Sequence record: OQ721911
DNA length: 64,000 nt
From: Escherichia phage vB_VIPECOOM03
Direction: 5' to 3' (one strand)
The notes beneath the pieces were generated by a model, which was not told where the DNA came from, searched no databases, and was given only the letters and a program-made list of their open reading frames with translations. A program made the translations under genes and the position numbers. Positions 41,414 to 62,170 of this stretch are shown here, piece after piece (within the stretch, counting starts at the first letter, position 1; each line of letters starts with the position of its first letter).

Positions 41414-41490
41414 ATTGTTTTCCTCTTTAATCGTCAGCAGTATTGCCGATAGTTGTATAGTACCATAGAAGAACAGGGATGTAAACCGTT
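41414..41490 (-). promoter_or_regulatory. Early promoter copy 1 of 3 (TTTTCACAAAACGGTTTACA ... TGGTACTATACAACTATC)
   Basis: 20-mer UP/-35 block and 18-mer -10 block, each identical to the copies at 58227-58310 and 62103-62170. Confidence 0.6.
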
Positions 41491-41517
41491 TTGTGAAAAA
41501 AATTTTTGAAATAAAAA

Positions 41518-41536
41518 AGGGGACCTCTAGGGTCCC
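41518..41536 (-). terminator. Hairpin GGGGACC-CUAG-AGGUCCCC plus U-run after gene 32
   Basis: Stem followed by UUUUUUAUUUC on the - strand. Confidence 0.6.
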
Positions 41537-41559
41537 CAATTAATTAGTAATATAATCTA

Positions 41560-42468
41560 TTAAAGGTCATTCAAAAGGTCATCCAGGTCCGTGTCATCAG
41601 CACTAGATGAACTGCCAGAGCTTGAGCTCATAAAATCATCTTCAGTTTTTGTTTTGAAGTCATCAACATTAAATGCATCCAAATCATCAGCAACTTTATC
41701 AGCTTTCTTAGCGGCAGTCGCTGCGGCACCACCCATAGCAGCAGTTCCCATAACTTGACTGAACTTAGTGCTCAATTCTTCAAACGATTTGAATTTATCT
41801 TTAGAAGTCATTTCAGAAAGGTCAACCATTTGTTCGAACAGTTCTTTCTGGAAAGATTCATCATCGATGTTTGGAATCGCAGATTGATTCAGGAATTTAG
41901 ATTCGTCGTAGTTACTAAAACCAGAAACTTGTTTAACTTTCAGTACAAAGTTAGCACCTTCCCACGGACAAGTTACATCAACCGGAGTTTCACCCATTTC
42001 AACATCAACTGCAATCATTGCATTGATTTTATCCCAGATTTTCTTACCGAAACGGTATTTAAATACTTTACCTTCATTTTCTGGAGCAGCTGGGTCTTTT
42101 ACTACAAGAATGTTAGCCCAGTAAGAAGTTTTACGTTTAACAAGACCATACTCTTTATTGTCAGTGTTATACAAATCATTTTTACTGATGTACTGACATA
42201 CTGGACAAGAATCGTAATCACCGTGGGTAGATGAACAGTTTTCAATATACCATTTACCATTTTTCTTGAAACCGTGATTTACAAGAATTGCAAATGGTGC
42301 TTGTTCATCATTTTTAGACGGAAGAAAACGAATTACTGCTTGACCGTTACCCGCATTATCGAGTTTCAGTTTCCACTCGCCTTTATCTTCAGAAGAAAAA
42401 CCACCTTTATTTCCAGCCAGTTTAGCCATTTGTGCAGCGAGTTCAGCAGTAGATTTACGTTTAAACAT
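41560..42468 (-). CDS. 32: Single-stranded DNA-binding protein gp32
   Basis: 302 aa, [17 protein letters not shown]...; zinc ligands region [14 protein letters not shown]; acidic C-terminal tail [12 protein letters not shown]. Confidence 0.95.
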
Positions 42469-42551
42469 TTTTATTTCCTTTTTAATTTAATTAACAGTTG
42501 GTGCTATGACGATGTATGACCTCATAGCTGGTCAGTGAGATAATTATAATC

Positions 42552-42559
42552 TATTTATA
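42552..42559 (-). promoter_or_regulatory. Late promoter TATAAATA upstream of gene 32
   Basis: TATAAATA on the - strand about 85 bp upstream of the gene 32 ATG. Confidence 0.45.
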
Positions 42560-42567
42560 ATAAGCAA

Positions 42568-43221
42568 TTAGTACTTACAAGATTTCACAGTTTCAATGAA
42601 AACATTTTTAGCTTTCTGTGAATCAATATTTAAAATTTTTCTATAAGCCTTTAACTTTATAGAATAATTATTCCAGACTAAATTATCAGTCTGTTCATCA
42701 TGTTTATCGATTATATTTAAAAACGAATCAAGCAAGATAAACGTCTCAAACGAAATTATATTCGATTGAAGTAGTTTAAAAATATAACTTGATTGAACTT
42801 TTGGATTATATTCAAAAATTTCTTTAAAAGCAGAAACTTCAACTTTTTTACTAAAATAATAAATGTTGCGAATATCTTCTTCAAACTTAAATTTAATTTG
42901 CTTTAAGCGTCCGATATATTCACGATAAAACACAAGTGCATCAGCGTCAGAGATGTCACCAATCCAAGCATCCTGGTTAGCAACAAGATTGCTTATAAAG
43001 ATTAAAGCAAGTTCCTTTAATTTATATTTTTCTGATAACTTCTGGAAAAAATACTTATCCCTTCGCTTTTGATAAGCGGCATCAGACACCCGCATGCACC
43101 AATTATACTTAATTACATCATACTTTCCATTCATATGTTGTTTTATCATTAAGTATAATTTATAAACTGATTTACCATCAATGTATCTTTCACCACCAGC
43201 AGGCATGCGGAGTTTAATCAT
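42568..43221 (-). CDS. 59: Helicase loader gp59
   Basis: 217 aa, MIKLRMPAGGERYIDGKSVYKLYLMIKQHMNGKYDVIKYNW matches T4 gp59. Confidence 0.93.
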   Translation of the reverse strand: MIKLRMPAGGERYIDGKSVYKLYLMIKQHMNGKYDVIKYNWCMRVSDAAYQKRRDKYFFQKLSEKYKLKELALIFISNLVANQDAWIGDISDADALVFYREYIGRLKQIKFKFEEDIRNIYYFSKKVEVSAFKEIFEYNPKVQSSYIFKLLQSNIISFETFILLDSFLNIIDKHDEQTDNLVWNNYSIKLKAYRKILNIDSQKAKNVFIETVKSCKY

Positions 43222-43556
43222 AGTAGAAAATCTAATGTATTAGTTTTTTCACAGCGAACAACAGAAGGACGTAAAAGATTTTCGTCAATAGCTTCTGACT
43301 GAATTTTTTCAATTATACCCGAAGGAATAAATTTAGCAAATTGAGTTTCAGGAATAGAATTTTCTTCCAAGAATGCTGTTGTAGCTTCAAGATAACTCAT
43401 TCCAAACTCTTCTACCATTTTTTCAATAATAAATCCATTTTCTTGACGATCAAGAAGCTTTGCAATTTCATCCTTTTCTTTCTTAATTGAAAGTTCTTTT
43501 TCTGAAAGACCGGTCTCATCGACCGGACGAATATCATTTAGAGAAAACTGTGTCAT
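43218..43556 (-). CDS. 33: Late transcription co-activator gp33
   Basis: 112 aa from MTQFSLNDIRPVDETGLSEKELSIKKEKDEIAKLL. Confidence 0.9.
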   Translation of the reverse strand: MTQFSLNDIRPVDETGLSEKELSIKKEKDEIAKLLDRQENGFIIEKMVEEFGMSYLEATTAFLEENSIPETQFAKFIPSGIIEKIQSEAIDENLLRPSVVRCEKTNTLDFLL

Positions 43557-43803
43557 AAAGTTCAACTACCTCTTCGGTTTCAGCTTCAAACACATCACGG
43601 TTATCTTTATGATACAAAGCTAAAAGACGATTAAACATCTTACCATCAACGCCAAGTTCATCTTTGGCACGAATTCGAATATCTTTAATTAATTCATTAT
43701 AACCGGAAATTTTCAGTTTATGATCAGATGCTTCTTTGATAAATTTAGCTAAGTCTTCGCCATGGATAGCTTCATCAAATTCAACCATTTCTTTTTTAGC
43801 CAT
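43534..43803 (-). CDS. dsbA: dsDNA-binding protein DsbA
   Basis: 89 aa, MAKKEMVEFDEAIHGEDLAKFIKEASDHKLKISGYNELIKD. Confidence 0.9.
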   Translation of the reverse strand: MAKKEMVEFDEAIHGEDLAKFIKEASDHKLKISGYNELIKDIRIRAKDELGVDGKMFNRLLALYHKDNRDVFEAETEEVVELYDTVFSK

Positions 43804-43811
43804 TATTCACC

Positions 43812-44729
43812 TCAAAATTCATTAATGCTATTAGTTAATTTAGAAAGACCCGCTTTTACAAAATATGAATAAATTTTGCCACGCGGTGGTAATTTATATG
43901 AATTATAGTAATTCACAATGTTTGAAGCAATATTATCAGGAATATAATCAAAGTCAATTAGAACTAAATTTTCTTTATATCGATTATATTCAGATTCAGT
44001 GAGAAGCACCTTAGCTTGCTCACGGTCATTAGCAATAGCTTCAACAATAGATGTTTTCATTGAAGGAGTTCGTTCACCTTCAACTCTGGTAAACCAAAAG
44101 TCAGATCGTACTTTAACTGAAGCAACGTTATCCTTTTTGTCGCCTTTAAGGATTTTAGTCATACAGTCAATTTCAGCAGAACCACTTTTAATTTTAACCC
44201 ATTTCTTATGCATCGGTGACCATTGCTTAACATTTGGGTATTTGTGAAGTTGAGTAAAGTCACCATCCGATGAAATGATTAAAATCTTGTGTCCTTCTAA
44301 AGAGAACTTTTTAACAAGAACAGCAACGTGGTCATCTGCTTCATACTTATCAATATCCATAACAATGTATGGCATATAAGCTTTCAATTCATCTATAACT
44401 TTATGACTGGATTCAAAATAACCTTCCCAGTCCCAAGTAGATTCTTCTCGCGCTTTTCCACGGTTTTTCTTATAGTAATAAGCGAAATCACGACGCCAAT
44501 ATCCGGATTTTGCGTTATCGATACACAACACAATTTTAGTGTATCCAAGAGTTTTTGCTTTTTTGACATTAAACTTAATTGAGTTCAATATCAAATGACG
44601 AACCATTGATAAATTAATTTTTTCTTTATCTGGGAAGTTTACTAGAGCAGTCGAAAGTGCAATTTGACTAAAGTCAATTAAGCAAATTCCTTCTTTGTAA
44701 TCTTCATCCAGCATCATTTCTAAATCCAT
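43812..44729 (-). CDS. rnh: RNase H / 5'-3' flap exonuclease
   Basis: 305 aa from MDLEMMLDEDYKEGICLIDFSQIALSTALVNF (FEN family). Confidence 0.93.
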   Translation of the reverse strand: MDLEMMLDEDYKEGICLIDFSQIALSTALVNFPDKEKINLSMVRHLILNSIKFNVKKAKTLGYTKIVLCIDNAKSGYWRRDFAYYYKKNRGKAREESTWDWEGYFESSHKVIDELKAYMPYIVMDIDKYEADDHVAVLVKKFSLEGHKILIISSDGDFTQLHKYPNVKQWSPMHKKWVKIKSGSAEIDCMTKILKGDKKDNVASVKVRSDFWFTRVEGERTPSMKTSIVEAIANDREQAKVLLTESEYNRYKENLVLIDFDYIPDNIASNIVNYYNSYKLPPRGKIYSYFVKAGLSKLTNSINEF

Positions 44730-44791
44730 ATGAACCTCGTTCAATTAGTGAGATTTCTATTATATACTATCCAAATCTTAAAGTAAACAAG

Positions 44792-44799
44792 TATAAATA
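44792..44799 (+). promoter_or_regulatory. Late promoter TATAAATA for gene 34
   Basis: Exact TATAAATA 35 bp upstream of the gene 34 ATG. Confidence 0.65.
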
Positions 44800-44833
44800 C
44801 TTATTATTGAAAACACAATAGGAGCCCGGGAGA

Positions 44834-47800
44834 ATGGCCGAGATTAAAAGAAAGTTCAGAGCAGAAGACGGTCTGGACGCAGGTGGCGATAAAATAATCA
44901 ACGTAGCTTTAGCTGATCGTACCGTAGGAACTGACGGTGTTAACGTTGATTACTTAATTCAAGAAAACACAGTTCAACAATATGATCCAACTCGTGGATA
45001 TTTAAAAGATTTTGTAATCATTTATAATAATCGTTTTTGGGCAGCAACGGATAATATTCCAAAACCTGCTGGAAGTTTTAATAGAATTCGTTGGAAAGCA
45101 TTACGTACTGATGCCGTATATACAACCGTATCATCTGGACCATATCAATTAAAATCCGGAGAAGCAATTTCAGTAGATACATCAGTTGGTAATGACATTG
45201 AGTTTAATTTACCACCTTCTCCGCTTGATGGAGAAACCGTAATAATTCAAGATATTGGTGGAAAACCTGGTATAAATCAGGTTAAAATAAATTCTTCAAA
45301 TCAGAGTATTGTTAATTTTAGAGGTGAACAAGTACGTTCAGTTCTAATGACTCATCCAAAGTCACAGATGATATTCATTTTTAATAATCGTTTGTGGCAA
45401 ATGTATGTTGCTGATTATAGCAGAGAAGCTGCGATTGTTACTCCATCGACTGCATATCAAGCACAATCTAATGATTTTATCGTGCGTAGATTTACTTCCG
45501 CTGCGCCGATTAATATTAAACTTCCGAGATTTGCTAATCATGGCGATATTATTAATTTCGTTGATTTAGATAAATTAAATCCACTTTATCATACAATTGT
45601 CACAACATATGATGAAACAACTTCAGTACAAGAAGTTGGAACTCATTCTATTGAAGGCCGTACATCGATTGACGGTTTCTTGATGTTTGATGATAATGAA
45701 AAATTATGGAGATTGTTTGACGGGGATAGTAAAGCACGTTTACGCATTATAACGACTAATTCAAACATTCGTCCAAATGAAGAAGTTATGGTATTTGGTG
45801 CGAATAATGGAACAACTCAAACAATTGAGCTTCAGCTTCCAACTAATATTTCTGTTGGTGATACTGTTAAAATTTCCATGAATTACATGAGAAAAGGACA
45901 AACAGTTAAAATCAAAGCTGCTGGTGAAGATAAAATTGCTTCTTCAGTTCAATTGCTGCAATTCCCAAAACGCTCAGAATATCCACCTGAAGCTGAATGG
46001 GTGACTGTTCAAGAATTAGTTTTTAACGGTGAAACTAATTATGTTCCAGTTTTACAACTTGCTTATATAGAAGATTCTGACGGAAAATACTGGGTTGTAC
46101 AGCAAAACGTTCCAACTGTTGAAAGAGTCGATTCTTTAAATAATTCTACTAGAGCAAGATTAGGCGTAATTGCTTTAGCTACACAAGCCCAAGCTAACGT
46201 CGATTTAGAAAATTCTCCACAAAAAGAATTAGCAATTACTCCAGAAACATTAGCTAACCGTACTGCTACAGAAACTCGCAGAGGTATCGCAAGAATAGCA
46301 ACTACTGCTCAAGTAAATCAGAACACTACATTCTCTTTTGCTGATGACCTTATCATCACTCCTAAAAAGCTGAATGAAAGAACTGCTACAGAAACTCGCA
46401 GAGGTGTTGCTGAAATTGCTACGCAGCAGGAAACTAATACAGGTACTGATGATACTACAATCATCACTCCTAAAAAGCTTCAAGCTCGTCAAGGTTCTGA
46501 AACATTATCGGGTATTGTAACTTTTGTATCTACCGCAGGAGCTACTCCAGCTTCTAGTCGTGAATTAAATGGTACAAATGTTTATAATAAAAATACTAAT
46601 AATTTAGTTGTTTCGCCTAAAGCTTTGGATCAGTATAAAGCTACTCCAACACAGCAAGGTGCAGTAATTTTAGCAGTTGAAAGTGAAGTAATTGCTGGAC
46701 AAAGCCAAGAAGGATGGGCAAATGCGGTTGTAACGCCAGAAACGTTACATAAAAAGACATCAACTGATGGAAGAATTGGTTTAATTGAGATTGCTACGCA
46801 AAGCGAAGTTAATACAGGAACTGATTATACTCGTGCAGTCACTCCTAAAACTTTAAATGACCGTAAAGCAACTGAAAGTTTAAGTGGTATAGCTGAAATT
46901 GCTACACAAGTTGAATTCGACGCAGGTGTCGACGATACTCGTATCTCTACACCATTAAAAATTAAAACCAGATTTAATAGTACTGATCGTACTTCTGTTG
47001 TTGCTCTATCTGGATTAGTTGAATCAGGAACTCTCTGGGACCATTATACCCTTAATATTCTTGAAGCAAATGAGACACAACGTGGTACACTTCGTGTAGC
47101 TACACAAGTTGAAGCTGCTGCAGGAACATTGGATAATGTTCTAATAACTCCTAAAAAGCTTTTAGGTACTAAATCTACTGAAGCGCAGGAAGGTGTTATT
47201 AAAGTTGCAACTCGGTCTGAAACTGTAGCTGGAACGTCAGCAAATACTGCTGTATCTCCAAAAAATTTAAAATGGATTGTGCAGAGTGAACCTACTTGGG
47301 CAGCTACTACTGCGATAAGAGGTTTTGTTAAAACCTCATCCGGTTCAATTACATTCGTTGGTAATGATACAGCTGGTTCTACGCAGGACTTAGAACTATA
47401 TGAGAAAAATAACTATGCAGTATCACCATATGAATTAAACCGCGTATTAGCAAATTATTTGCCGTTAAAAGCAAAAGCTGTAGATAGTAATTTATTAGAT
47501 GGTTTAGATTCACTCCAGTTCATTCGTAGGGATATTGCGCAGACGGTTAATGGTTCACTAACCTTAACGCAACAAACGAATCTGAGTGCCCCTCTTGTAT
47601 CATCTAGTACTGCTACGTTTGGTGGATCAGTTTCGGCAAATAGTACATTAACTATTTCTAATACTGGAACGGCAACTCGTCTGATTTTTGAAAAAGGGCC
47701 TCAAACTGGGACGAACCCAGCTCAAACGATGACAGTCAGAGTGTGGGGAAATCAATTCAGCAGTGAATCGGACACAACACGTTCTACTGTATTTGAAGTT

Positions 47801-48711: not shown

Positions 48712-49827
48712 ATGGAAAAATTTATGGCAGAGTTTGGACAAGGATACGTCCAAACGCCATTTTTATCGGAAAGTAATTCAGTAAGATATAAAATAAGTAT
48801 AGCGGGTTCTTGCCCGCTTTCTACAGCAGGACCGTATGTTAAATTTCAGGATAATCCTGTCGGAAATCAAACATTTAGCGCAGGTCTTCATTTAAGAGTT
48901 TTTGACCCTTCAACAGGAGCATTAGTTGATAGTAAGTCATATGCTTTTTCTACTTCAAATAATACTACATCAGCTGCTTTTGTTAGTTTCATGAATTCTT
49001 TGTCAAACAATAGACTTGTTGCTATATTAACTAGCGGAAAGGTTAATTTTCCTCCTGAAGTGATATCTTGGTTAAGGGGAGCAGGAACTTCAGTTTTTCC
49101 ATCAGATTCAGTATTGTCAAGATTTGACGTATCATATGCTGCTTTTTATACTTCTTCTAAAAGAGCTATTGCATTAGAGCATGTTAAACTAAGTAATAGA
49201 AAAAGCACAGATGATTATCAAACTATTTTAGATGTTGTATTTGATAGTTTAGAAGACGTCGGAGCTACGGGATTTCCTAAAAGAACATATGAAAGTGTCG
49301 AGCAATTTATGTCAGCGGTTGGTGGAACTAATAACGAAATTGCGCGATTGCCAACTTCAGCTGCTATAAGTAAACTATCTGATTATAATTTAATTCCTGG
49401 CGATGTTCTTTATCTTAAAGCACAGTTATATGCTGATGCTGATTTACTTGATCTTGGAACTACAAACATATCCATTCGTTTTTATGATGCATCAAATGGA
49501 TATATTTCCTCTACCCAAGCTGAGTTTACTGGGCAAGCTGGGTCTTGGGAATTAAAGGAAGATTATGTAGTTGTTCCTGAAAATGCAGTCGGATTTACTA
49601 TATATGCGCAGAGAACTGCTCAAGCTGGTCAAGGCGGAATGAGGAATTTAAGCTTTTCTGAAGTATCAAGAAATGGCGGCATTTCAAAACCTGCCGAATT
49701 TGGCGTCAACGGTATTCGTGTTAATTATATCTGTGAATCGGCTTCACCTCCAGATATAATGGTACTTCCTACACAAGCCTCTTCTAAAACTGGCAAAGTG
49801 TTTGGGCAAGAATTTAGAGAAGTTTAA
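48712..49827 (+). CDS. 35: Long tail fibre hinge protein gp35
   Basis: 371 aa, syntenic between genes 34 and 36. Confidence 0.92.
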   Translation: MEKFMAEFGQGYVQTPFLSESNSVRYKISIAGSCPLSTAGPYVKFQDNPVGNQTFSAGLHLRVFDPSTGALVDSKSYAFSTSNNTTSAAFVSFMNSLSNNRLVAILTSGKVNFPPEVISWLRGAGTSVFPSDSVLSRFDVSYAAFYTSSKRAIALEHVKLSNRKSTDDYQTILDVVFDSLEDVGATGFPKRTYESVEQFMSAVGGTNNEIARLPTSAAISKLSDYNLIPGDVLYLKAQLYADADLLDLGTTNISIRFYDASNGYISSTQAEFTGQAGSWELKEDYVVVPENAVGFTIYAQRTAQAGQGGMRNLSFSEVSRNGGISKPAEFGVNGIRVNYICESASPPDIMVLPTQASSKTGKVFGQEFREV

Positions 49828-49832
49828 ACTGA

Positions 49833-49860
49833 GGGAGCCTTCGGGTTCCCTTTTTCTTTA
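49833..49860 (+). terminator. Gene 35 terminator hairpin GGGAGCC-UUCG-GGUUCCC plus U-run (copy 1)
   Basis: 7-bp stem (one G-U pair), UUCG tetraloop, UUUUUCUUUA. Confidence 0.6.
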
Positions 49861-49959
49861 TGAATCGGCTTCACCTCCAGATATAATGGTACTTCCTACA
49901 CAAGCCTCTTCTAAAACTGGCAAAGTGTTTGGGCAAGAATTTAGAGAAGTTTAAACTGA

Positions 49960-49987
49960 GGGAGCCTTCGGGTTCCCTTTTTCTTTA
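49960..49987 (+). terminator. Duplicated terminator hairpin (copy 2)
   Basis: Identical sequence 127 bp downstream of copy 1. Confidence 0.6.
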
Positions 49988-49993
49988 TAAATA
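49986..49993 (+). promoter_or_regulatory. Late promoter TATAAATA for gene 36
   Basis: TATAAATA spanning the 3' edge of repeat copy 2, 24 bp upstream of the gene 36 ATG. Confidence 0.65.
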
Positions 49994-50681: not shown

Positions 50682-53630
50682 ATGGCTACTTTAAAACAAA
50701 TACAATTTAAAAGAAGCAAAACCGCAGGTCAACTTCCTGCTGCTTCAGTATTAGCCGAAGGTGAATTGGCTATTAATTTAAAAGATAAAGCAATTTTCAC
50801 AAAAGATGATTCAGGCAATGTTATAGAATTAGGTTTAAAATATGGAGGAACAATTGATGGTTCTTTAACTGTTAATGGAAATATAACTGGAACTTTAATT
50901 GGAAATTCTAGCACAGCTACTAAATTGCAAACACCTAGGAAAATTAATGGTATATCCTTTGATGGGTCAAAAGATATCACGCTAACTCCATCTGACATAA
51001 ATGTCAATAGCACAACGTTTATAAAAAATAACGGCGAATTACCGGTTGATGCTAATTTAGATGAGTATGGGCCTGTTGAAGAATATCTTGGGGTTTGGTC
51101 GAAATCTACTTCAACAAATGCGCAACCGGCAAATAAATTCCCAGAAGAAAATGCCGTAGGTGTACTAGAAGTATTTGTGGCCGGTCAATTTGCTGGTACT
51201 CAGAGATATACTGTAAGATCTGGTAACGTATATGTTCGATCTTTGTCTGCTAAATGGAACGGTGTTAACGGTCCGTGGGGAGTTTGGCGTAATGTTCAAG
51301 CGTCAACTCGTCCACTTTCACAAACGATTGACCTTGATAGCTTGGGAGAATTAGAACATTGCGGCTTATGGCGAAATAGTTCAAGTGCTATTGCATCATT
51401 TGATCGCCATTATCCAGAAGAAGGATCAGCCGCACAAGGATTTTTAGAAATATTTGAAGGTGGTTTATACACGAGAACGCAGCGATATACTACCCGCATG
51501 GGTATGGTTTATACTCGTTGTCTCGCTGCCGCATGGGATGCTAGCGCACCCAAGTGGGAGGAATGGAAGCAGGTTGGTCATGGCACACCAGCGACTTTTT
51601 ATGATGGAGATCTGAATGATTTTAAAACTCCTGGGTTATATAATATTTTAGGCACTGATGCCGTTATTAATTGCCCTACAGGTGAAGGTTTACCAGCCGT
51701 TATTGTTGGTTTGCTAGAAGTTAAACAGCGTGCTTCTGGTGGTGCTATTTTCCAAAAATTTACTACTGCCGGAACGGGTGAAACTACTCGCGATCGTATT
51801 TTTGAGCGTGCATATACTGGTGGTGCGTGGGGTGCATGGAACGAAGTATATACATCTTATTCTCTGCCAATTACTTTGGGTATGGGTGGTATTAAAGCTC
51901 AATTATCGGAGTTAGATTGGCAAACCTTTGATTTTGTTCCTGGTAGTATGTTTAGCGTTCCTTTGAACAAAATAAAGAATATGCCAGCAAATATGGATTG
52001 GGGCACGATTGATGGAAACCTGGTTATGTTTTCCGTTGGTCCTAGCGAACATACTGGCACAGGACGTACTGTTCAGGTTTGGCGTGGTACTGTATCCCAG
52101 ACAAACTACCGTTATTTTGTTGTGCGTATAGCTGGAAATCCAGGAAACAGGACTAACACTTGTCGCCGTGTTGTTCTTGAAGACGGATCACATACTTGGA
52201 CTGCTCAACAAAACTTTAGGGGATTGCTAAATATCACCGCTGATATTAATCTTGGTGCTAATAAGAAAATTTCAATTGCTCCGGGAGCATATATTCAAGG
52301 CCCTGCTAGCGGTTCTGGTTCAAATACTTACGCAAATCAGAATACTACTATTGCGCCATTATATCAGGCCATTGACGATTCAAATAAAAACCAGTTTGCT
52401 CCTATTGTAAAACAGAAAAACACTGTAACAAATATTACTATGGCTTCTGGTATGGATATTGCTAGTTCAGAATATCGTATCATTGCTCAAGGTGATTTAT
52501 CCGCTACTGGAACTACAGCTAATGAATTAGCTACATGGCGTTTCTTGCCGTCTGGCCGATTCATGTCACAAAGTCGAGTTTATGCTGGCGCAGCATTCTT
52601 GAACACTGATGGTAACATTGCTGGTTCAATCTGGAAGAAATACAACGATGCAACCAACTTAGACGCTGCTTTGAATACTCGCGTAGGTAAAAGCGGTGAT
52701 ATTATGACCGGACGCTTGACAATTCAAAGCCCAGGTGATTCTATTGTATTATCAGCACCTGCTAGTAATTCTTTGCATATTCGTGGTGACGTAGACGGGA
52801 CTGGTAACTGGTATATTGGTAAGGGTGGTGATGATAATGGATTAGCGTTCTATAGTTATGCTACTAATGCTGGTGTATACATTACAAACGCAGGAGATAT
52901 CACGCTAAGTCCAAAAGGCGTCGAAATGGCTCATGTCAATAACATTCGATTATATGTTCATGGTGAACGTTGGACCGCTAGTCAACCAGGTGATTGGGGC
53001 AACCAATGGCGAGTAGAAGCGCCAATATTCGTCGATCATGGTTATGTTGGATCAGATAGCTATTATCCAATTATTAAAGGAAGAAGTGTAGTCACCAATC
53101 AAGGGTTTGTAACTGCCGTCGATCTTGGTATTCGTCGTGTCCCTAATAATTGGGGACAAGCAATTATTCGTGTTGGATCTGCGGAGGCATCGCCAGCGGC
53201 TGGACACCCTAACGCGGTATTTGAATTTCATTACGACGGTACTTTCTATTCTCCTGGTAATGGTAACTTTAACGATGTGTATATTCGTTCCGATGGTCGA
53301 CTTAAGATCAATAAAGAAGAGTTAGAAAACGGAGCACTTGAAAAAGTATGCCGACTGAAGGTTTATACATACGATAAGGTTAAGTCTATTAAAGATCGTA
53401 GTGTTATTAAACGTGAAGTTGGTATTATTGCTCAGGATCTTGAAAAAGAATTACCGGAAGCTGTGTCTAAAGTTGAAGTTGATGGATCTGATGTTCTGAC
53501 AATTTCTAACTCCGCTGTGAATGCTCTTTTAATTAAGGCTATCCAAGAAATGAGCGAAGAAATTAAAGAATTAAAAACGCCTTTCTTCACTAAAATTGCT
53601 CGCAAAATTAGTAATTATTTTAAATTCTAA
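50682..53630 (+). CDS. 37: Long tail fibre distal subunit gp37 with C-terminal intramolecular-chaperone-like domain
   Basis: 982 aa, [51 protein letters not shown]; C-terminus has SDGRLK and GIIAQDLE motifs. Confidence 0.92.
53289..53630 (+). other. Putative self-cleaving intramolecular chaperone domain (peptidase S74-like) at the gp37 C-terminus
   Basis: Last 113 codons: S870-D-G-R-L-K875 (Ser/Lys spacing as in endosialidase and T5 L-shaped fibre chaperone domains), then [16 protein letters not shown]. Confidence 0.6.
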
Positions 53631-55863: not shown

Positions 55864-55946
55864 AGACCTTCCCCTTATGTTTCTGTTTGCGATTAGATTC
55901 TTTAAATGCTTTCTTCTTATCTTTGTGGACAGAAGCTTTATTAAAA

Positions 55947-57247: not shown

Positions 57248-57257
57248 TATTTATTCC

Positions 57258-57893
57258 TCACAGTTCAGATGCTACGGTGATTACTGCTTCAATGTTTTCT
57301 GCCGAGCGTTTAATGTCAAGATACACATTGCCGTTTTTAGCGATTTTACATGACATTCCAATATCAGTAAATTTCTGAATATGGTGTTCCATCATTTTGT
57401 ATCCAAAAATTCGCATATTTCCATTGTTATTAATTTCAAAATTACGAATTCCGTGAGTGCGTTTTTCTAAAATAGCAAGATAGTTACTGCGGTAAGTTTC
57501 AACCTTTTTAAGAACAAATCCATTTTCATCTAAAAGTTTTAGCATAAGGTCTTTATCTTCTTCCATATCGGAAGTAATCTCACGAGCTTTACGAGTTGCT
57601 CGTTTTTTCAGTAGTTCAGGAGCATTTTCCTGTGCATATAAAGTTGCCGCATTTGAAATAATATCCTGAGCTTCACCAGTAATGATTAATCCATCACCAG
57701 ATTTCTCCACCAGGCCTTTTTTAATCAATACCCCAATATTACTATTAACTACTGCATTACCTAAATCTGGATGCACCTCACGAACTTCTGCGGCTGTAAT
57801 GAAATCTTTCTTAGCAATGGTAATTAAAATCGCAGCAGTTTTTTCATTCAGAACATCGTTAGAAGCTTTGATGATGTAAGTTACTTTAGACAT
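57258..57893 (-). CDS. motA: MotA activator of middle-mode transcription
   Basis: 211 aa, MSKVTYIIKASNDVLNEKTAAILITIAKKDFITAAEVREVHPDLG matches T4 MotA. Confidence 0.93.
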   Translation of the reverse strand: MSKVTYIIKASNDVLNEKTAAILITIAKKDFITAAEVREVHPDLGNAVVNSNIGVLIKKGLVEKSGDGLIITGEAQDIISNAATLYAQENAPELLKKRATRKAREITSDMEEDKDLMLKLLDENGFVLKKVETYRSNYLAILEKRTHGIRNFEINNNGNMRIFGYKMMEHHIQKFTDIGMSCKIAKNGNVYLDIKRSAENIEAVITVASEL

Positions 57894-57960
57894 TTTAATC
57901 TCCGTTTCAGTTCATTTATTTGATAGGTCTATAGTATCATGTTTAAAGCAGAAGTAAACA
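57894..57960 (-). promoter_or_regulatory. Early promoter-like element and leader for motA
   Basis: GTTTACTTCTGCTTTAAACATGATACTATAGACCTATCAAATAAATGAACTGAAACGGAGATTAAAATG; the leader is shared with the element at 58227-58310. Confidence 0.55.
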
Positions 57961-57998
57961 CTTTTTTGCACTCTTTTTCAAGAGCTCTAATAAAGTAC

Positions 57999-58226
57999 TT
58001 ACTTAATGTTCAGATTACGAACTTCGATTTCGTCTTCATGGGCAAAATCAAACTGTTTGAATTCTGTGTCACCTTTAAATTTAAAAATCATTGTGAAGAA
58101 AGTCAGAACACCAGGTTTTTCTTCACGAACTCCACAGATGTCATATTCAATACCATCTACAACCAGTTTGTTAGCAGTCAGAGCATTTTTAGCTTTAACT
58201 ATTTCGTTTTCGATTTTAAATTTCAT
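57999..58226 (-). CDS. Hypothetical protein (motA.1 position)
   Basis: 75 aa from MKFKIENEIVKAK with GGAG SD; the ORF-track extension covers the promoter. Confidence 0.5.
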   Translation of the reverse strand: MKFKIENEIVKAKNALTANKLVVDGIEYDICGVREEKPGVLTFFTMIFKFKGDTEFKQFDFAHEDEIEVRNLNIK

Positions 58227-58310
58227 TTTTTTGTATCTCCGGGTTGTTTGTTTCAGTTCATTTATTTGATAGTTGTATAGTACCATAAAGCTTTATGCTT
58301 GTAAACCGTT
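58227..58310 (-). promoter_or_regulatory. Early promoter copy 2 of 3
   Basis: TTTTCACAAAACGGTTTACA ...(14)... TGGTACTATACAACTATCAAATAAATGAACTGAAAC. Confidence 0.6.
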
Positions 58311-58335
58311 TTGTGAAAAAATTTGAAATAAAAAA

Positions 58336-58355
58336 GGGAGAGCCTCGGCTCTCCC
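58336..58355 (-). terminator. Hairpin GGGAGAGCC-GA-GGCUCUCCC plus U-run
   Basis: Perfect 9-bp stem followed by UUUUUUAUUU on the - strand. Confidence 0.6.
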
Positions 58356-58360
58356 TAAAA

Positions 58361-58510: not shown

Positions 58511-59835
58511 TTGATTTCCTCTAAATCTTTGGTGTATTCTGTAACTACATCAGTAGTTTTCCAATATTCGTTTTCTTCTTTTTTAGCTTTAGCTTCTTCA
58601 GCAAGTTTCTTTGCTTCGTCGGAAGTCATATGAAAAATATTCATTCCAACTAGTTTATCAACATAAGAAGAATACATATCAATTTTAGAAAGTTCTTCGG
58701 TCAGTTCTTTGCGAGTTTTACCTTGTACAACAATTTCACCTGAAATTACTTTCTTAATGAAATGTGCCTTGGCAAAGGCTAAACGAAATGCTGATTCAGT
58801 TTCTTTGATTTTGTTATCAATTCGTTTTTGGACATAAGTTTTACGAACTTCAACGAAGTCTTTGATTAAATCAACTACGTTATCGTAAACTTGTAGTTTT
58901 CCTTTCTCATTAATAACGGTAATATTCTGGGAACGACGCTCAATCAACCCGAAGTCTTTCATAATTTTTGCATGGCGTTCTTCTTCGTTATCGCTTAAGG
59001 AATATTCTTTACGGAATTTAACTTTGAAGCCAAAACCATGCTCACCGCAAGCATCATCCCACGTAATGAAACCTTTATCTTCAAGCGGGTCTAAGATTTT
59101 ACTCACATAAGTTTCACGATCATACTTATACGGAATCTCAGTGATATGCATTTGAGTTCGTGAAGTAAACTTGTACGTTCCACGAATTTCATATTGACCG
59201 TCAATTTCAACGACTTCACCGCGAAATTCTGGAAATTCTACCTTCGGTTTAGTTACTTTCTTTCCTTGAAGAGCTTGTAGTACAGCTTTCTTGACAGAAG
59301 AAACGCTATGAGGAAGAATGTAAGTTGCATAACCAGTTGCAATACCGGAAACACCATTAAGAAGAACGGTAGGAATAATAGGCAAATAGAAAGCAGGCGG
59401 AATGTGTTCTTTATCTTGATGTACCGGAGCATATTCAGTATCTTTATATACGCTATAGAAATTTTTACTTACACGAGCAAAAATATAACGACTTGCTGCT
59501 GCTTTTTGAACGGTACGAGAACCAAAGTTTCCTTGACCATCTAACAAAGGAAAGTTATTATTCCAAGTGTTAGCCATCAAAGCCCCCGCATCTTGTGCAG
59601 AGTTTTCACCATGATGATATCCAAGGTCAGCTACACCACCTGCAATAGAAGCAAGTTTGTGAAACTTATCTTTATTTCCTCGCGCCAAATCAAGAGCTCG
59701 AGCAATAACAAATCGTTGAACTGGCTTAAATCCATCAATCATATTTGGAATAGCACGATTTTCAACCGTGTACATAGCATAAGCCAGTGCTTCATTATCA
59801 ATGATACTTTTTAAATCGCGATTATTCAGTTGCAT
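58507..59835 (-). CDS. 52: DNA topoisomerase II medium subunit gp52
   Basis: 442 aa, MQLNNRDLKSIIDNEALAYAMYTVENRAIPNMIDGFKPVQRFV (GyrA/ParC-like N-terminal domain, active-site Tyr region). Confidence 0.95.
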   Translation of the reverse strand: MQLNNRDLKSIIDNEALAYAMYTVENRAIPNMIDGFKPVQRFVIARALDLARGNKDKFHKLASIAGGVADLGYHHGENSAQDAGALMANTWNNNFPLLDGQGNFGSRTVQKAAASRYIFARVSKNFYSVYKDTEYAPVHQDKEHIPPAFYLPIIPTVLLNGVSGIATGYATYILPHSVSSVKKAVLQALQGKKVTKPKVEFPEFRGEVVEIDGQYEIRGTYKFTSRTQMHITEIPYKYDRETYVSKILDPLEDKGFITWDDACGEHGFGFKVKFRKEYSLSDNEEERHAKIMKDFGLIERRSQNITVINEKGKLQVYDNVVDLIKDFVEVRKTYVQKRIDNKIKETESAFRLAFAKAHFIKKVISGEIVVQGKTRKELTEELSKIDMYSSYVDKLVGMNIFHMTSDEAKKLAEEAKAKKEENEYWKTTDVVTEYTKDLEEIK

Positions 59836-59839
59836 AAAT

Positions 59840-59980
59840 TTACCATACTAGTGAATGTAGTGCCATAATAACATCAGAAATGAAAAGCACGACTTGAATT
59901 AATCCGAACATTACTCCATAATATAGCGCTACCAATAAAGTAGCAAGGGCTACCGAGTAGCCCAAGATTTTCTTAATCAT
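59840..59980 (-). CDS. Small hydrophobic hypothetical protein
   Basis: 46-aa ORF MIKKILGYSVALATLLVALYYGVMFGLIQVVLF...; overlaps the ac stop. Confidence 0.35.
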   Translation of the reverse strand: MIKKILGYSVALATLLVALYYGVMFGLIQVVLFISDVIMALHSLVW

Positions 59981-60131
59981 TAGTAGATAACAACACAAAT
60001 GTTAAATATGCACACATACCCTGGGCTAAAGCTTGTGAAAACACACTGCTAGCATCAATACAGATAGTTAAAACACATGCTACTATCCAACAAATGAATG
60101 AAATAACTCCTAATAATTTTGCAATATTCAT
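59973..60131 (-). CDS. ac: Small membrane protein, probable Ac (acridine sensitivity)
   Basis: 52-aa ORF MNIAKLLGVISFICWIVACVLTICIDASSVF... in the position of T4 ac between stp and 52. Confidence 0.55.
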   Translation of the reverse strand: MNIAKLLGVISFICWIVACVLTICIDASSVFSQALAQGMCAYLTFVLLSTND

Positions 60132-60138
60132 ATTTTCC

Positions 60139-60219
60139 TCACTGGCGTCCGAAAACGCCTTTAGTTTTAAGATTGTTACGATAGAACTGCATTACATGTT
60201 CGTTATGGAAATTACTCAT
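60139..60219 (-). CDS. stp: Stp peptide (26 aa)
   Basis: [26 protein letters not shown], identical to T4 Stp as I recall it; ATG overlaps the ndd stop. Confidence 0.75.
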
Positions 60220-60674
60220 TAGTATGCCTGCAAAACAAATTTAAAGTTATCAGCCAACATACGGTTCATTTCTTCAAGCGTTTGATACTCAGAATGATGA
60301 TTACGAGTAAACGCTAAAGCTAACTGACCTTTTCCAAATCCCGTCGTCAGAGGTTTCATCTTAGAAGCAGGCAAATAAAATACTGTGTATGGAACATTGT
60401 TATTTGCAATAGTACGCGCAAGCTGAGACCGACGCTGACGAATATGACTTAGAACTGCGCTGAATCCTTGCTTAGAACGTTGATTACCTACATAAAATCG
60501 TGCAGATACACACGGACTATCAAATGGACCGCCAAATTTGCTCACTAAAAAGTAAAATCCAGGGTTAGACAAAATGTCTTTATGCGGAGTTCCAAAAACC
60601 CATTCACCGCCCTTGATTGTACCAATAACAGTTGCGCCTGCATTATTCAAATCAGTAACAGTCATATATTTCAT
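60219..60674 (-). CDS. ndd: Nucleoid disruption protein Ndd
   Basis: 151 aa, [42 protein letters not shown] matches T4 Ndd. Confidence 0.93.
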
Positions 60675-60733
60675 GTTATTTTCCTCTAATTATTTTCTAC
60701 TCCAAGGCCGCATGAATACACACGGCCGATAAA

Positions 60734-60949
60734 TTAATCGTCGCAGTCGACGCTCAATTCCCAGAACTCTTCTACAGTATAAGTTTCAGTATCATTTTCA
60801 ATACAGAAACGTTCATTACTGTTATTTGCTAAAGTAGCGTTAACTGTCATTTTCTCGCTAGTGCTTTTAAGAGGTGAAATACGAATTAACTGATCACCAT
60901 TATCTAAACAGAAAATTTCACCGACCTTTACATCTTTAAAAATTTTCAT
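60734..60949 (-). CDS. Hypothetical protein (ndd.1 position)
   Basis: 71-aa ORF. Confidence 0.45.
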   Translation of the reverse strand: MKIFKDVKVGEIFCLDNGDQLIRISPLKSTSEKMTVNATLANNSNERFCIENDTETYTVEEFWELSVDCDD

Positions 60950-61064
60950 AATTCACCTCAAGGAGTATAAAATCCAAACGCAGTTGTTGACCATCCCATC
61001 CAGTATGGGAAATTTGCACCAATGTAAAACATAAGAATATAAAACCAACCACTCAGCAAATTCA

Positions 61065-61283
61065 TCATTTTACGCCATTCCAAATTGTTTCAACCACAGA
61101 TTTCAAACCATTTTGGTGAATATCCATTCCGACAACTGCCATCAAATAAATTCCAACTACAACTGAACCCAAGGCGAAAATCAGCATGAAAATGAATAAA
61201 GCTGGAAAAATATTATCAAAAAACCATTCCATAAATGTAAAAGCACTGCGTTTACGCTTCATATTTTCCTCACATAAATCCAA
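61065..61283 (-). CDS. Hypothetical membrane protein
   Basis: 72-aa ORF with one TM-like segment. Confidence 0.45.
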   Translation of the reverse strand: MDLCEENMKRKRSAFTFMEWFFDNIFPALFIFMLIFALGSVVVGIYLMAVVGMDIHQNGLKSVVETIWNGVK

Positions 61284-61626
61284 AGTAAGCGTTTAATACA
61301 TCAATCATTAAAACGATTGGGAATATACTCAAAACTACTAGTATTATAACTACATTCCATATAGCTTTAACAATCTTTTTCATTTTCTGTTCCTCCGTAG
61401 TTGATAGGATAATAATACCACAGAGGAACAGTCTTGTAAACAACTTTTTTAAAAATATTCGTAATAAATGTGAATACCAATCACCACTGCCGAAACTTGC
61501 GCAACCCACCACGCACAAGCAATAAGTACAGAATTCAAAATTTTCATAATAACCTCATCACAAAAGTAAATGTTAAACAAATTAATGGAATACTAATTAA
61601 CCAAACAAAACACCACCATAATGAAC

Positions 61627-61899
61627 TCATAGTTCAATCTCAGCGATTTTCATTTCATTATTATTAATAGCCGCTTTAAGACTATCTGAAAGAATTACAT
61701 CCCAGTGGTCATTCATATGACCATTAACTAAGCGTGTAATTTCTTCGGGAGTTGAAAAATAAGGCGTATCAGACTCCCAATGCGATAGTCCCAAGCGAGT
61801 ATAAATCATACCTTCATCATCGCTAGAATATTCAACTGACACAAACTCATCAGTTATTTTATGTTTAGCGTAATAAAATTTAAATTTCATTTTACTCAA
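61627..61899 (-). CDS. Hypothetical protein
   Basis: 90-aa ORF. Confidence 0.5.
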   Translation of the reverse strand: MSKMKFKFYYAKHKITDEFVSVEYSSDDEGMIYTRLGLSHWESDTPYFSTPEEITRLVNGHMNDHWDVILSDSLKAAINNNEMKIAEIEL

Positions 61900-62102
61900 T
61901 AATCTGCTAAAAGATCGACGATTGCATCACGAAGACACTTATTCGCAATACGTTTAAGAGCAATTTCAGTTTCTGGAGCATTTTGAATAATCATTGAATT
62001 CAATTCAGCCTCAGCAAACTGAAGTTCTTTAACTAATTCAGCTTTATATTTTCCTTGACCTTTCTTAGCTTTTGCTCGTTTTAATTCAGCTGTAGTAAAC
62101 AT
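61896..62102 (-). CDS. Hypothetical protein
   Basis: 68 aa from the ATG preceded by GGAGAATAAA; the ORF-track start is a TTG. Confidence 0.5.
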   Translation of the reverse strand: MFTTAELKRAKAKKGQGKYKAELVKELQFAEAELNSMIIQNAPETEIALKRIANKCLRDAIVDLLADY

Positions 62103-62170
62103 TTTATTCTCCAAATCCGTATCAGTTGATAGTTGTATAGTACCACAGTCCTTGTGGTATGTAAACCGTT
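62103..62170 (-). promoter_or_regulatory. Early promoter copy 3 of 3
   Basis: TTTTCACAAAACGGTTTACATACCACAAGGACTGTGGTACTATACAACTATC. Confidence 0.6.

Follow-up and report, generated by a model that had tools for sequence, protein, structure and literature searches.

Five repeated elements in the stretch of phage DNA analysed here (64,000 nucleotides, hereafter the window) are very probably T4-type early promoters, each set in a small cassette with its 5' leader and ribosome-binding site. Host RNA polymerase would use such very strong sigma-70 promoters in the first minutes of infection. As repeats they are ordinary and already known, being the well-known strong early promoters of a T4-like phage. 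The less familiar point is that a conserved hairpin at two of them, those of alc and alt.-3, likely hides the ribosome-binding site in read-through RNA.

Promoter anatomy and T4 orthology

Judged by its sequence, the window is from a Tequatrovirus near-identical to Escherichia phage vB_VIPECOOM01, which it matches at ~100%. T4 carries the same triplet of a 20-mer and an 18-mer 5' of frd.3, motA and ndd.6 (the orthologue of copy 1 lies at T4 146837-146888), as well as the same pair of promoter-leader blocks 5' of alt.-3 and alc. That our sites occupy the orthologous positions upstream of these five genes bears out the original prediction of early promoters, and on these grounds we take them to be the catalogued T4 ones. 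The triplet and its surroundings are as follows.

41448-41499, minus strand: early promoter copy 1 (frd.3 promoter), with the 20-mer at 41480-41499 and the 18-mer at 41448-41465
41519-41537, minus strand: gene 32 intrinsic terminator hairpin GGGGACCctagaGGTCCCC and T-tract, directly 5' of copy 1; T4 is arranged alike
57904-57959, minus strand: second, distinct early promoter directly 5' of motA (GTTTACT, 16-bp hexamer spacer, TGATACTAT)
58268-58319, minus strand: early promoter copy 2, with the 20-mer at 58300-58319 and the 18-mer at 58268-58285
58335-58356, minus strand: motA.1 terminator hairpin and T-tract, directly 5' of copy 2
62128-62179, minus strand: early promoter copy 3, downstream of denB, with the 20-mer at 62160-62179 and the 18-mer at 62128-62145

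The predicted repeats are real, and all are far above chance expectation in the window: the 20-mer TTTTCACAAAACGGTTTACA has three exact matches, all on the minus strand (0.02 expected), the 18-mer TGGTACTATACAACTATC is found exactly at three sites (0.03 expected; a relative with three mismatches lies at 57922-57939), and two copies of the promoter-leader block lie at 16715-16768 and 32482-32535 (0.00 expected). Several details required correction. The 20-mer and 18-mer are separated by 14 nt in each copy and not by a variable 14-17 bp, copies 2 and 3 end at 58319 and 62179 and not at 58310 and 62170, and the shared block is 54 nt long with four differences and not 55 bp. The count of three copies holds for the window, but they are not isolated: in a T4-wide scan the module turns up at least six times, at imm.1, nrdC.10, e.8, frd.3, motA and ndd.6.

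With its 14-nt inner gap, each triplet copy has a 17-bp spacer between the hexamers and the classical T4 early pattern of an A/T-rich UP-like tract, -35 GTTTACA, 17-bp spacer, TGn and -10 TACTAT; TTTACA, a 17-bp spacer, TAnnnT and a TG 5' of the -10 are present at every site. As predicted, conservation extends beyond the hexamers, and this has been documented for T4 early promoters, whose architecture joins UP, -35, TGn and -10 elements to further consensus regions (PMC2988021, PMC2613000, PMC1524935). Within the 20-mer lie the proximal UP subsite (-45 to -37; PMC2613000) and the -35 element, so that it would supply the proximal UP-like A/T tract and GTTTACA. The 18-mer, which spans TGn, the -10 and the discriminator and then positions +1 to +3, would supply TGn, TACTAT, the discriminator and a +1 A. 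The inner 14 nt are not known to make base-specific contacts with polymerase and are free to vary.

Start sites were predicted from the -10 position alone. In copy 1 the -35 TTTACA (41480-41485), a 14-nt inner spacer (tccctgttcttcta), TGG and the -10 TACTAT (41457-41462) precede a predicted +1 A near 41450 and the frd.3 ATG at 41413. The T4 frd.3 RNA ranks with the most abundant NAD-capped RNAs of that phage; such capping needs a +1 A, and in the same study capped 5' ends match dRNA-seq starts (bioRxiv 10.1101/2024.04.04.588121). Copy 2 has its -10 at 58277-58282, a predicted +1 near 58270 and an inner spacer (agcataaagcttta) identical to the T4 spacer of frd.3 and nrdC.10. In copy 3 (-10 at 62137-62142, predicted +1 near 62130, ATG at 62102) the inner spacer taccacaaggactg pairs with the TGGTA of the extended -10 as a TACCACA/TGTGGTA stem, and the leader ends in a RegB-type site, GGAGAATAAAA, at 62102-62112. 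The triplet promoters show no significant folding by the fold z-score test. Only about three transcribed nucleotides are common to all three copies, so the predicted conservation of the leader does not hold for the triplet. The predicted RNase site survives in part, as a RegB-type consensus in the copy 3 leader only, outside the triply shared sequence.

Mosaic spacers and gene replacement beside the triplet

Between flanks of 100% identity, the triplet has inner spacers that lack similarity, and these 14-nt spacers are shuffled among loci and among phages. The frd.3 locus has four different inner spacers in four phages, and the motA spacer is found at frd.3 of RB14. Matches to the 45-mers specific to individual spacers outnumber the records that contain them, with 514 places against 452 records, 497 against 462 and 83 against 76. 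Open reading frames change beside the same cassettes. A 75-aa extra ORF (57999-58226), absent from T4 and RB14, lies under the copy 2 promoter, and the motA promoter from its -10 into the leader (57904-57940; motA ATG at 57893) is a 37-nt direct repeat, at 92%, of 58250-58286, so that this ORF is flanked on both sides by promoter-leader repeats. Downstream of denB, one and the same promoter is followed, depending on the phage, by any of three unrelated ORFs, and identity stops at the ATG. The predicted capacity of the repeats for rearrangement agrees with this comparative evidence and fits the published promoter-early stem-loop (PeSL) model, for which mini-circle evidence is also published (PMC2839356, PMC4122927).

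The mosaicism and ORF insertions and deletions appear to match PeSL cassettes, whose likeness would be maintained jointly by function and by ectopic recombination. Two causes would then underlie the near-identity of the triplet, namely strong selection on polymerase contacts, among them the putative UP-element contacts, and repeated ectopic recombination or gene conversion between cassettes by the PeSL mechanism, which would also shift ORFs in and out beside them. Spacer sharing among loci could partly reflect ancestral polymorphism instead of conversion. Pure functional convergence, in which the copies are identical because every conserved position serves polymerase contact and recombination plays no part, would explain why the conserved parts are the known contact regions (proximal UP, -35, TGn, -10, discriminator and +1) while the non-contact spacer varies (PMC2988021). 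We nevertheless consider it very unlikely, since early promoters elsewhere in this genome that match the consensus equally well have different flanks (aaaaagtt before GTTTACA, TGATACTATTACCCTATC), which makes the exact 20-mer and 18-mer a sub-family trait and not a requirement. Moreover, whole uncontacted 14-nt spacers are common to non-orthologous loci and differ between orthologous ones, and the identity of copies 1 and 2 runs on into the upstream terminator T-tract, with similarity reaching ~43 nt upstream of the spacer.

A spacer-leader hairpin at alc and alt.-3

At the other two sites, the promoter spacer pairs with the Shine-Dalgarno (SD) leader, leaving the -10 and start site in the loop.

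32480-32535, minus strand: alc promoter-leader cassette; GTTTACA 32529-32535, 3' arm ACATAACATGAGGACT 32480-32495, including the SD GAGGA
16715-16768, minus strand: alt.-3 promoter-leader cassette, copied from that of alc; GTTTACA 16762-16768, 3' arm ACATAACATGAGGA 16715-16728

The 5' arm at alc is the promoter spacer itself (AGTCCCTCGTGTTGTGT, 32512-32528), and the loop holds the -10 TACAGT (32506-32511) and a predicted +1 near 32499; the ATG follows at 32477, and the hairpin has a dG of -28.6 kcal/mol (z -4.64). At alt.-3, where GTTTACA overlaps the stop codon of the upstream alt-like gene, the 5' arm (16745-16761), -10 TATAGT (16739-16744), predicted +1 (near 16732) and ATG (16707) are arranged alike, with a dG of -21.8 kcal/mol (z -4.44). 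All four differences between the window copies fall in the central, apical 16 nt, outside both arms. Opening the SD would cost 8.3 to 12.7 kcal/mol in the long RNA versus 2.2 to 2.9 in the short one.

These two elements would be promoters of the same kind as the triplet, but with a spacer complementary to their own leader and SD. Read-through RNA from the upstream gene (rnlA or alt) would contain both arms, fold and bury the SD, whereas promoter-started RNA would begin in the loop, lack the 5' arm and be translatable. The effect on translation is what we infer from this arrangement, and we see the case for a translational gate that silences read-through RNA as evenly balanced. The shared translational operator of the original prediction would thus be retained as an SD-burying RNA hairpin and not as a protein operator.

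Pairing of the alc spacer with the SD persists, with differing sequences, in at least seven lineages (complementarity is seen in Karamvirus, Moonvirus, Roskildevirus, Jiaodavirus, Dhakavirus, an unclassified Klebsiella phage and, as an eighth lineage, the L023/L029 contigs). Native spacer-leader combinations average -14.87 kcal/mol versus -10.0 +/- 1.09 on permutation, a value reached in 1 of 100000 permutations, and natural variants preserve the pairing (G.U to A-U in L027, a change at the bulged C in L049). The advantage of sense over antisense folding is clear in T4 and inconsistent in the other alc lineages. The hairpin is absent from Mosigvirus, Acinetobacter phage Ac42 and Nanhuvirus, and is thus dispensable in some lineages. 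At alt.-3, the alc-type cassette is confined to Tequatrovirus; six other lineages have a different spacer with an internal stem there, which sets the direction of copying as alc to alt.-3. The alc version would be ancient, and the copied tract appears to end at motifs already common to both loci, the -35 GTTTACA and the SD CATGAGGA.

Such a lineage-specific copy is what neutral recent duplication predicts, with the repeats as remnants constrained only at the hexamers. Simple duplication had been named as the finding that would undo the case for function, and alt.-3 did receive a copy, but the copied unit is functionally constrained: its differences avoid both arms, and covariation has kept the alc hairpin across genera. 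Among the triplet, identical flanks around dissimilar spacers are the opposite of neutral decay, and T4, RB14 and several IMG/VR genomes have retained the same modules, so we find neutrality scarcely credible. A somewhat better case, though still an unlikely one, is that the stem-loop attenuates or terminates upstream transcription. Arbiol et al. (PMC2839356) read such stem-loops, commonly placed between -35 and -10 or overlapping the -10, as transcription attenuators, one RB49 PeSL stem-loop lowers expression of downstream lacZ, and UUUAU follows the alc stem. Yet a terminator scan calls nothing at alc or alt.-3, A-rich sequence and not a U-tract follows the alt.-3 copy and most orthologous alc hairpins, and the 3' arm is the SD itself in every hairpin-bearing lineage. 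In T4, furthermore, 9-10 of the 35 early promoters specifically sequester the SD they precede, and do so better than all or nearly all of 34 chimeric upstream regions. Finally, one leader (ACAUAACAUGAGGA) on two unrelated genes might suggest an operator for a trans-acting protein such as RegA, or a RegB RNase site, co-regulating alc and alt.-3, given that T4 early mRNAs are subject to both (PMC3014915). We regard this as highly improbable: the block has no GGAG and hence no RegB core, all five window matches to the RegB consensus GGAGRAYARAA lie elsewhere, other genera lack the alc-type cassette at alt.-3, and across genera only the leader-spacer complementarity is conserved and not the leader sequence, which favours structure over a sequence-specific protein site.

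Relation to known systems

The sites share with T4 early promoters (Pe, the 'uber' UP/-35/TGn/-10 sigma-70 type) the -35 GTTTAC(A/T), 17-bp spacer, TGn, TAnnnT, an A/T-rich region from -40 to -60, conserved positions around +1 and a location on the early strand 5' of early genes. Nothing essential differs; this phage varies in the assignment of spacers to loci and in the ORF after copies 2 and 3. The published PST/T4 consensus TTTACW-N17-TAYWAT also fits. PeSLs (Arbiol et al. 2010; Comeau et al. 2014) are the same composite of stem-loop, A/T tract, early promoter and SD, likewise repeated intergenically and tied to ORF insertion, deletion or replacement between close relatives. Stem-loops here lie 5' of the promoter in copies 1 and 2, between -35 and -10 in copy 3, and over the -10 at alc and alt.-3. 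Mini-circles have been reported for PeSLs. As copies 1 and 2 here adjoin essential genes (32 and motA), only non-reciprocal exchange is expected to be viable. That the 3' arm of the alc stem is the SD is a point not made in the PeSL papers. Compared with RegB/S1 sites (GG*AGRAYARAA in early-gene translation initiation regions), the end of the copy 3 leader (GGAGAATAAAATG) is an exact match, with four more in the window, but it lies outside the sequence common to the three promoters.

The closest parallel to the hairpin is found in T4 genes whose ribosome-binding site is sequestered by a hairpin with an internal promoter (e, soc, 49, I-TevI/II/III and segB; also mobE of Aeh1). There too the SD is buried in upstream-started RNA, and the internal promoter yields a shorter, translatable RNA without the 5' arm. 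In those cases the promoter and genes are late (PMC2988022), whereas here the promoter is an early sigma-70 one and its spacer is the 5' arm. An early-promoter hairpin gate would be a modest extension of what is known and, if true, would restrict translation to early, promoter-proximal transcripts.

Five early promoters of the T-even family

The original prediction claimed a 20-mer and an 18-mer that recur three times in the window, and both do occur there in three exact copies, all on the - strand and far above expectation (0.02 and 0.03 occurrences expected, respectively). The promoter-leader block GTTTACAAGTCCCTCGTGTTGTGTTAYAGTA...ACATAACATGAGGA that it reported upstream of two other genes was likewise found at both places (0.00 expected). 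The spacing between the 20-mer and the 18-mer, previously put at 14-17, measures 14 nt in all three copies, and the upper coordinates assigned to copies 2 and 3 had been 9 nt short. Our search of the window also returned a relative of the 18-mer with three mismatches at 57922-57939. The window matches Escherichia phage vB_VIPECOOM01, a Tequatrovirus, at 99.998-100%, and downstream genes were assigned from the record of that phage together with T4 (AF158101).

Promoters carrying the repeated elements (20-mer, TTTTCACAAAACGGTTTACA; 18-mer, TGGTACTATACAACTATC)
41448-41499, - strand: copy 1 (20-mer 41480-41499, 18-mer 41448-41465), upstream of frd.3, directly after the gene 32 terminator
58268-58319, - strand: copy 2 (20-mer 58300-58319, 18-mer 58268-58285), upstream of an extra 75-aa ORF located between motA.1 and motA
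62128-62179, - strand: copy 3 (20-mer 62160-62179, 18-mer 62128-62145), upstream of the first ORF downstream of denB
16715-16768, early-gene strand: block upstream of alt.-3, its -35 overlapping the stop codon of the alt-like gene
32482-32535, early-gene strand: block upstream of alc, 3 nt past the rnlA stop codon

Each of the five sites precedes an early gene, lies on the early-gene strand and is orthologous to a promoter position of T4. The T4 genome has the paired 20-mer and 18-mer at frd.3 (146837-146888), motA (163635-163686) and ndd.6 (167048-167099, with 2 mismatches), and the block at alt.-3 (123040-123093) and alc (136283-136336). Since the same modules are present in T4, they are conserved T-even features and not peculiar to vB_VIPECOOM03. 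Promoter features are absent from the annotation of the T4 GenBank record. Elsewhere in gene content, vB_VIPECOOM03 has two full-length tandem genes for Alt-like ADP-ribosyltransferases (window region 16768-20913; record 121287-125441), as does RB14, where T4 has alt alone and the remnants alt.-1 and alt.-2. Window positions 49734-49992 hold a 127-bp tandem duplication (2.0 copies, 99% match, perfect register) that covers the 3' end of gene 35 and the gene 35 terminator; the otherwise near-identical OQ721909 does not have it, and the window maps there with a 127-bp change of offset.

Promoter positions are counted with the -35 hexamer set at -35 to -30. All copies of the triplet read TTTACA-17-TACTAT, the alc and alt.-3 promoters read TTTACA-17-TACAGT and TTTACA-17-TATAGT, and TG precedes the -10 at each of the five sites (extended -10, TGn). 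The 20-mer spans approximately -49 to -30 and thus the -35 element and the proximal UP subsite, which lies at -45 to -37 (PMC2613000). In the 18-mer lie TGn (-15 to -13), the -10 and the discriminator, followed by +1 to +3; the +1 is predicted to be an A. An A/T-rich, UP-like region is present at -40 to -60, the tracts at alc and alt.-3 being weaker, and copies 1 and 2 each follow an intrinsic terminator whose T-tract runs into the A5-T7 tract. Against what we take to be the UP consensus of Estrem 1998, copy 1 (-57 to -41, AAAAATTTTTTCACAAA) matches 14 of the 15 specified positions and copies 2 and 3 match 10. Scanning the window gave about 13 promoters of this kind, every one on the - strand, with a broader consensus that includes ...CTATCAA... 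around +1. For T4 early promoters the literature uses the term 'uber' UP/-35/TGn/-10 promoters and describes additional consensus regions (PMC2988021); GTTTAC at -36 to -31 and an A-rich region at -40 to -44 are also on record (PMC1524935). Because the window promoters match this published family consensus, the conservation beyond the hexamers, from which selection on more than sigma-70 recognition had been proposed, is present but amounts to that known consensus. Of the NAD-capped phage RNAs, that of T4 frd.3 ranks with the most abundant (bioRxiv 10.1101/2024.04.04.588121), and, because NAD capping needs a +1 A start, its abundance is consistent with a strong promoter initiating at the +1 A; the supplement of the T4 dRNA-seq preprint lists no start-site coordinates for these sites.

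The suggestion that the leader similarity marks an RNase site was not borne out for RegB. The RegB/S1 consensus GGAGRAYARAA (PMC3014915) has five exact matches in the window, compared with 0.42 expected:

RegB/S1 consensus matches in the window
25266-25276, - strand: exact match
25666-25676, - strand: exact match
40699-40709, - strand: exact match
53244-53254, - strand: exact match
62102-62112, - strand: exact match, at the end of the copy-3 leader

The consensus falls outside the sequence common to the three copies and is absent from the alc/alt.-3 block. Four of the five matches are an identical early-gene ribosome-binding site, GGAGAATAAAATG. No Rfam family matched anywhere in the window at gathering thresholds.

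Probable exchange of promoter cassettes between loci

A T4-wide scan gave about 35 credible early promoters, at least six of which (imm.1, nrdC.10, e.8, frd.3, motA and ndd.6) contain the module ttttttcacaaaac(g/t/a)GTTTACA-N14-TGGTACTATACAACTATC. Other T4 early promoters have different flanks, and the exact 20-mer and 18-mer are therefore the mark of a paralogous sub-family, not of a functional necessity; scanning IMG/VR with the 20-mer returned only 10 loci. Within this sub-family the spacers are mosaic. The 14-nt frd.3 spacer is tccctgttcttcta in the window, agcataaagcttta in T4, accaaagcatactg in RB14, where it equals the motA spacer, and ttcttgtccttcca in one IMG/VR genome, while copy 2 of the window has the spacer of T4 frd.3 and nrdC.10 and the T4 e.8 spacer resembles that of frd.3 in the window. 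Chimeric combinations of flank, spacer and leader were seen across the compared loci. In the phage collection, three spacer-specific 45-mers occur at 514 places in 452 records, 83 in 76 and 497 in 462, and this excess of places over records argues that whole promoters have been copied between loci, including nucleotides that polymerase does not contact.

This pattern matches that of promoter-early stem-loops (PeSLs), published as composite cassettes of stem-loop, early promoter and Shine-Dalgarno (SD) sequence that recombine and shuffle ORFs, with the PST/T4 promoter consensus TTTACW-N17-TAYWAT and with the ndd region as an example (PMC2839356, PMC4122927). Like PeSLs, the sites described here are single intergenic units that combine an early promoter with a stable stem-loop and run up to the SD/ATG, the stem being a terminator hairpin upstream (copies 1 and 2), lying within the spacer (copy 3) or overlapping the -10 (alc and alt.-3). 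They also share with PeSLs their occurrence at many sites, a conserved length of about 50-100 bp and, for copies 2 and 3, their location at boundaries of insertion, deletion or replacement between close relatives. The promoter and leader downstream of denB precede three unrelated ORFs in different phages, with identity stopping at the ATG: ndd.6 in T4 (166996; MKIAEIEL), an ORF beginning MFTTAELKR in the window (62102) and RB14, and one beginning MKFKFYYAK in three IMG/VR genomes (L013-L015). The extra ORF behind copy 2 (57999-58226, - strand; 75 aa; phrog_10955 in OQ721909) does not occur in T4 or RB14. A 37-nt direct repeat (57904-57940 and 58250-58286, 92%) extending from the -10 into the leader flanks this ORF, which looks like an insertable cassette of the PeSL type. 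In about one quarter of the phage records with a match, coverage of this region is complete.

The original observation is thus real: what recurs are T4 early promoters of the classical kind, set within PeSL-type cassettes. Judging from the sequence comparisons, the identity of the copies would reflect selection for polymerase contacts together with ectopic exchange. As a whole, the finding re-discovers two documented T-even features, namely an early promoter consensus that extends past the hexamers and promoter cassettes that recombine, and its novelty is low.

A spacer-leader hairpin at alc and alt.-3

The block shared by alc and alt.-3 has a further property. Its promoter spacer, AGTCCCTCGTGTTGTGT, complements the leader ACATAACATGAGGA(CT) in a duplex that includes two G.U pairs and leaves one C bulged, and the four positions at which the two window copies differ all lie in the central, apical 16 nt. 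Natural variants occur in loci of other phage genomes, a G.U becoming A-U in L027 and the bulged C being changed in L049. The alc RNA folds with a dG of -28.6 kcal/mol (z -4.64) and that of alt.-3 with -21.8 kcal/mol (z -4.44), none of 200 shuffles being as good in either case. By the geometry, the loop contains the -10 and the predicted start site, such that the short RNA would lack the 5' arm. Opening the SD is predicted to cost 8.3 kcal/mol at alc in RNA from upstream versus 2.2 in RNA from +1, and 12.7 versus 2.9 at alt.-3. A terminator scan made no call at either hairpin and none between rnlA and alc or between alt and alt.-3, so read-through RNA with both arms is expected. Most likely, the conserved hairpin would limit translation to transcripts started at the promoter.

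In other genera, too, the GTTTACA upstream of alc leads into a spacer that complements the SD leader of the same region, although the sequences differ:

Spacer and leader arms upstream of alc in other lineages
Karamvirus and Moonvirus: spacer arm TCTCCATTTGGTT, leader arm AACCAAATGGAGA
Roskildevirus: spacer arm TCTCCTCAG, leader arm CTGAGGAGA
Jiaodavirus: spacer arm TCCTCATCAG, leader arm CTGATGAGGA
Dhakavirus: spacer arm TCTCCTCAT, leader arm ATGAGGAGA
IMG/VR genomes L023 and L029: spacer arm TC(T/C)CCGTTT, leader arm AAACGGAGA
Unclassified Klebsiella phage: weaker pairing in both arms

We compared duplex energies for native and swapped spacer-leader pairs in a permutation test over ten lineages. 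Native duplexes averaged -14.87 kcal/mol versus -10.0 +/- 1.09 for permuted ones, and 1 permutation in 100000 attained the native mean. When ten alc/alt.-3 upstream regions were aligned with MAFFT, RNAalifold predicted no pairs, because variable loop lengths shift the 3' arms out of register. The pairing is lost at Mosigvirus alc, where the leader is still T4-like and the spacer has been replaced, and the hairpin is absent from alc of Acinetobacter phage Ac42 and Nanhuvirus; a metagenome scan for Alc relatives returned close Tequatrovirus copies only. In three IMG/VR genomes of about 170 kb (L024, L025 and L028) the Alc match spans 739 nt versus about 500 and does not form a single open reading frame, suggesting that alc of that lineage has acquired an insertion or frameshift; upstream of their alc is a hairpin resembling a terminator, and it is the leader that pairs with the SD.

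At alt.-3, an alc-type spacer was found in Tequatrovirus only among the lineages compared. Gaprivervirus, Mosigvirus, Kanagawavirus, Kagamiyamavirus and other IMG/VR lineages have there a spacer with an internal stem, e.g. caccacaaggatgtgg, and a leader that ends in CATGAGGAA. The simplest history for these sequences would be that alt.-3 received a copy of the alc cassette, the transferred tract breaking off at motifs both loci already had, GTTTACA and CATGAGGA. Such endpoints would explain why the block extends from the -35 to the SD. The promoter-leaders of Mosigvirus alc (L039, mar005P1) and alt.-3 (L046/L063) also resemble one another (GTTTACAAACAC...GATACTAT...ATCAACAACAYGAGGA), with a spacer type that differs from that of Tequatrovirus; these loci come from different phages, and the likeness hints at concerted evolution of the alc/alt.-3 pair in more than one genus.

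Early promoters as candidate translational gates

Across the 35 T4 early promoters, spacers complement their own downstream region more than those of other promoters. The longest exact inverted repeat averages 6.03 nt versus 4.27 +/- 0.15, a value reached in 0 of 2000 permutations, and 19 of the promoters have a repeat of at least 6 nt where 4.2 are expected. Nine or ten, including regB, denV, alt.-3 and alc, have a native upstream region that hides the SD (8-17 kcal/mol) better than all or nearly all of the 34 chimeric ones. Sense RNA folds better than antisense (-13.27 versus -10.09 kcal/mol, p = 2e-4), a weak support for a role at the RNA level since base composition may contribute. In the window, the class with a buried SD comprises the promoters with -35 positions 16768 (alt.-3), 25723, 32535 (alc) and 61441, the two that serve other genes being:

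Further window promoters with predicted SD burial (coordinate of the -35 G)
25723, - strand: spacer/SD TCCTTTG/CAAAGGA; SD opening 10.6 kcal/mol in read-through RNA, 2.4 in promoter-proximal RNA
61441, - strand: spacer/SD CTGTTCCTC/GAGGAACAG; SD opening 17.2 kcal/mol in read-through RNA, 0.5 in promoter-proximal RNA

We entertain, tentatively and at slightly less than even likelihood, the idea that early promoters doubling as translational gates form a sizeable class in T4-like phages, about one quarter to one third of the early promoters of T4. In such a gate, the 17-bp spacer of the promoter itself would supply the 5' arm of a hairpin and the SD of the gene it serves the 3' arm. Only promoter-initiated RNA would be translated, and exposed to RegB, and read-through middle or late RNA would carry the gene silently; at alc, at least seven lineages maintain the arrangement by covariation. 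A promoter would then have to move together with its leader and SD, which would explain the exchange of whole cassettes instead of bare promoters. A protein-binding palindrome around the -10, acting at the DNA level, was rejected because the sequence of the inverted repeat differs from promoter to promoter. The idea that gated promoters are those without an upstream terminator was dropped, a rough T4 tally (1/10 versus about 6/25) being unconvincing. At the triplet promoters, a conserved RNA structure was sought and rejected (fold z -0.5, -0.4 and -1.7).

The analysis is mainly of value as an aid to annotating vB_VIPECOOM03, in which five early promoters, two terminators and an accessory ORF flanked by cassettes can be placed precisely. 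The comparative data also provide a clear natural case of promoter cassettes copied between distant loci, with spacers moving among frd.3, motA and nrdC.10 and the alc cassette apparently moving into alt.-3. Should the gate prove true, it would extend a regulatory device of T4 late genes to early genes and explain the unit of exchange in functional terms. It would also bear on the design of synthetic T4 expression cassettes and on comparing RNA-seq with proteomics for those early genes that long transcripts carry as well.

Arbiol et al. described PeSL stem-loops as commonly positioned between the -35 and -10 or overlapping the -10, and interpreted them as attenuators (PMC2839356). Hairpins that sequester the ribosome-binding site (RBS) and contain an internal promoter are established in T4, where they are described as a late-gene device (PMC2988022). 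With both already published, the early-promoter hairpin is at most a modest extension of known mechanisms. The alc and alt.-3 hairpins resemble those of the T4 e/soc/I-TevI type in their stability, in the location of the SD in the 3' arm and in having a predicted internal start inside the hairpin. They differ in that the e/soc/I-TevI-type promoter (TATAAATA) and gene are late, whereas the alc and alt.-3 promoters are of the early sigma-70 type. The early-promoter hairpin would therefore work like the RBS-sequestering family without being a member of it as defined in PMC2988022.
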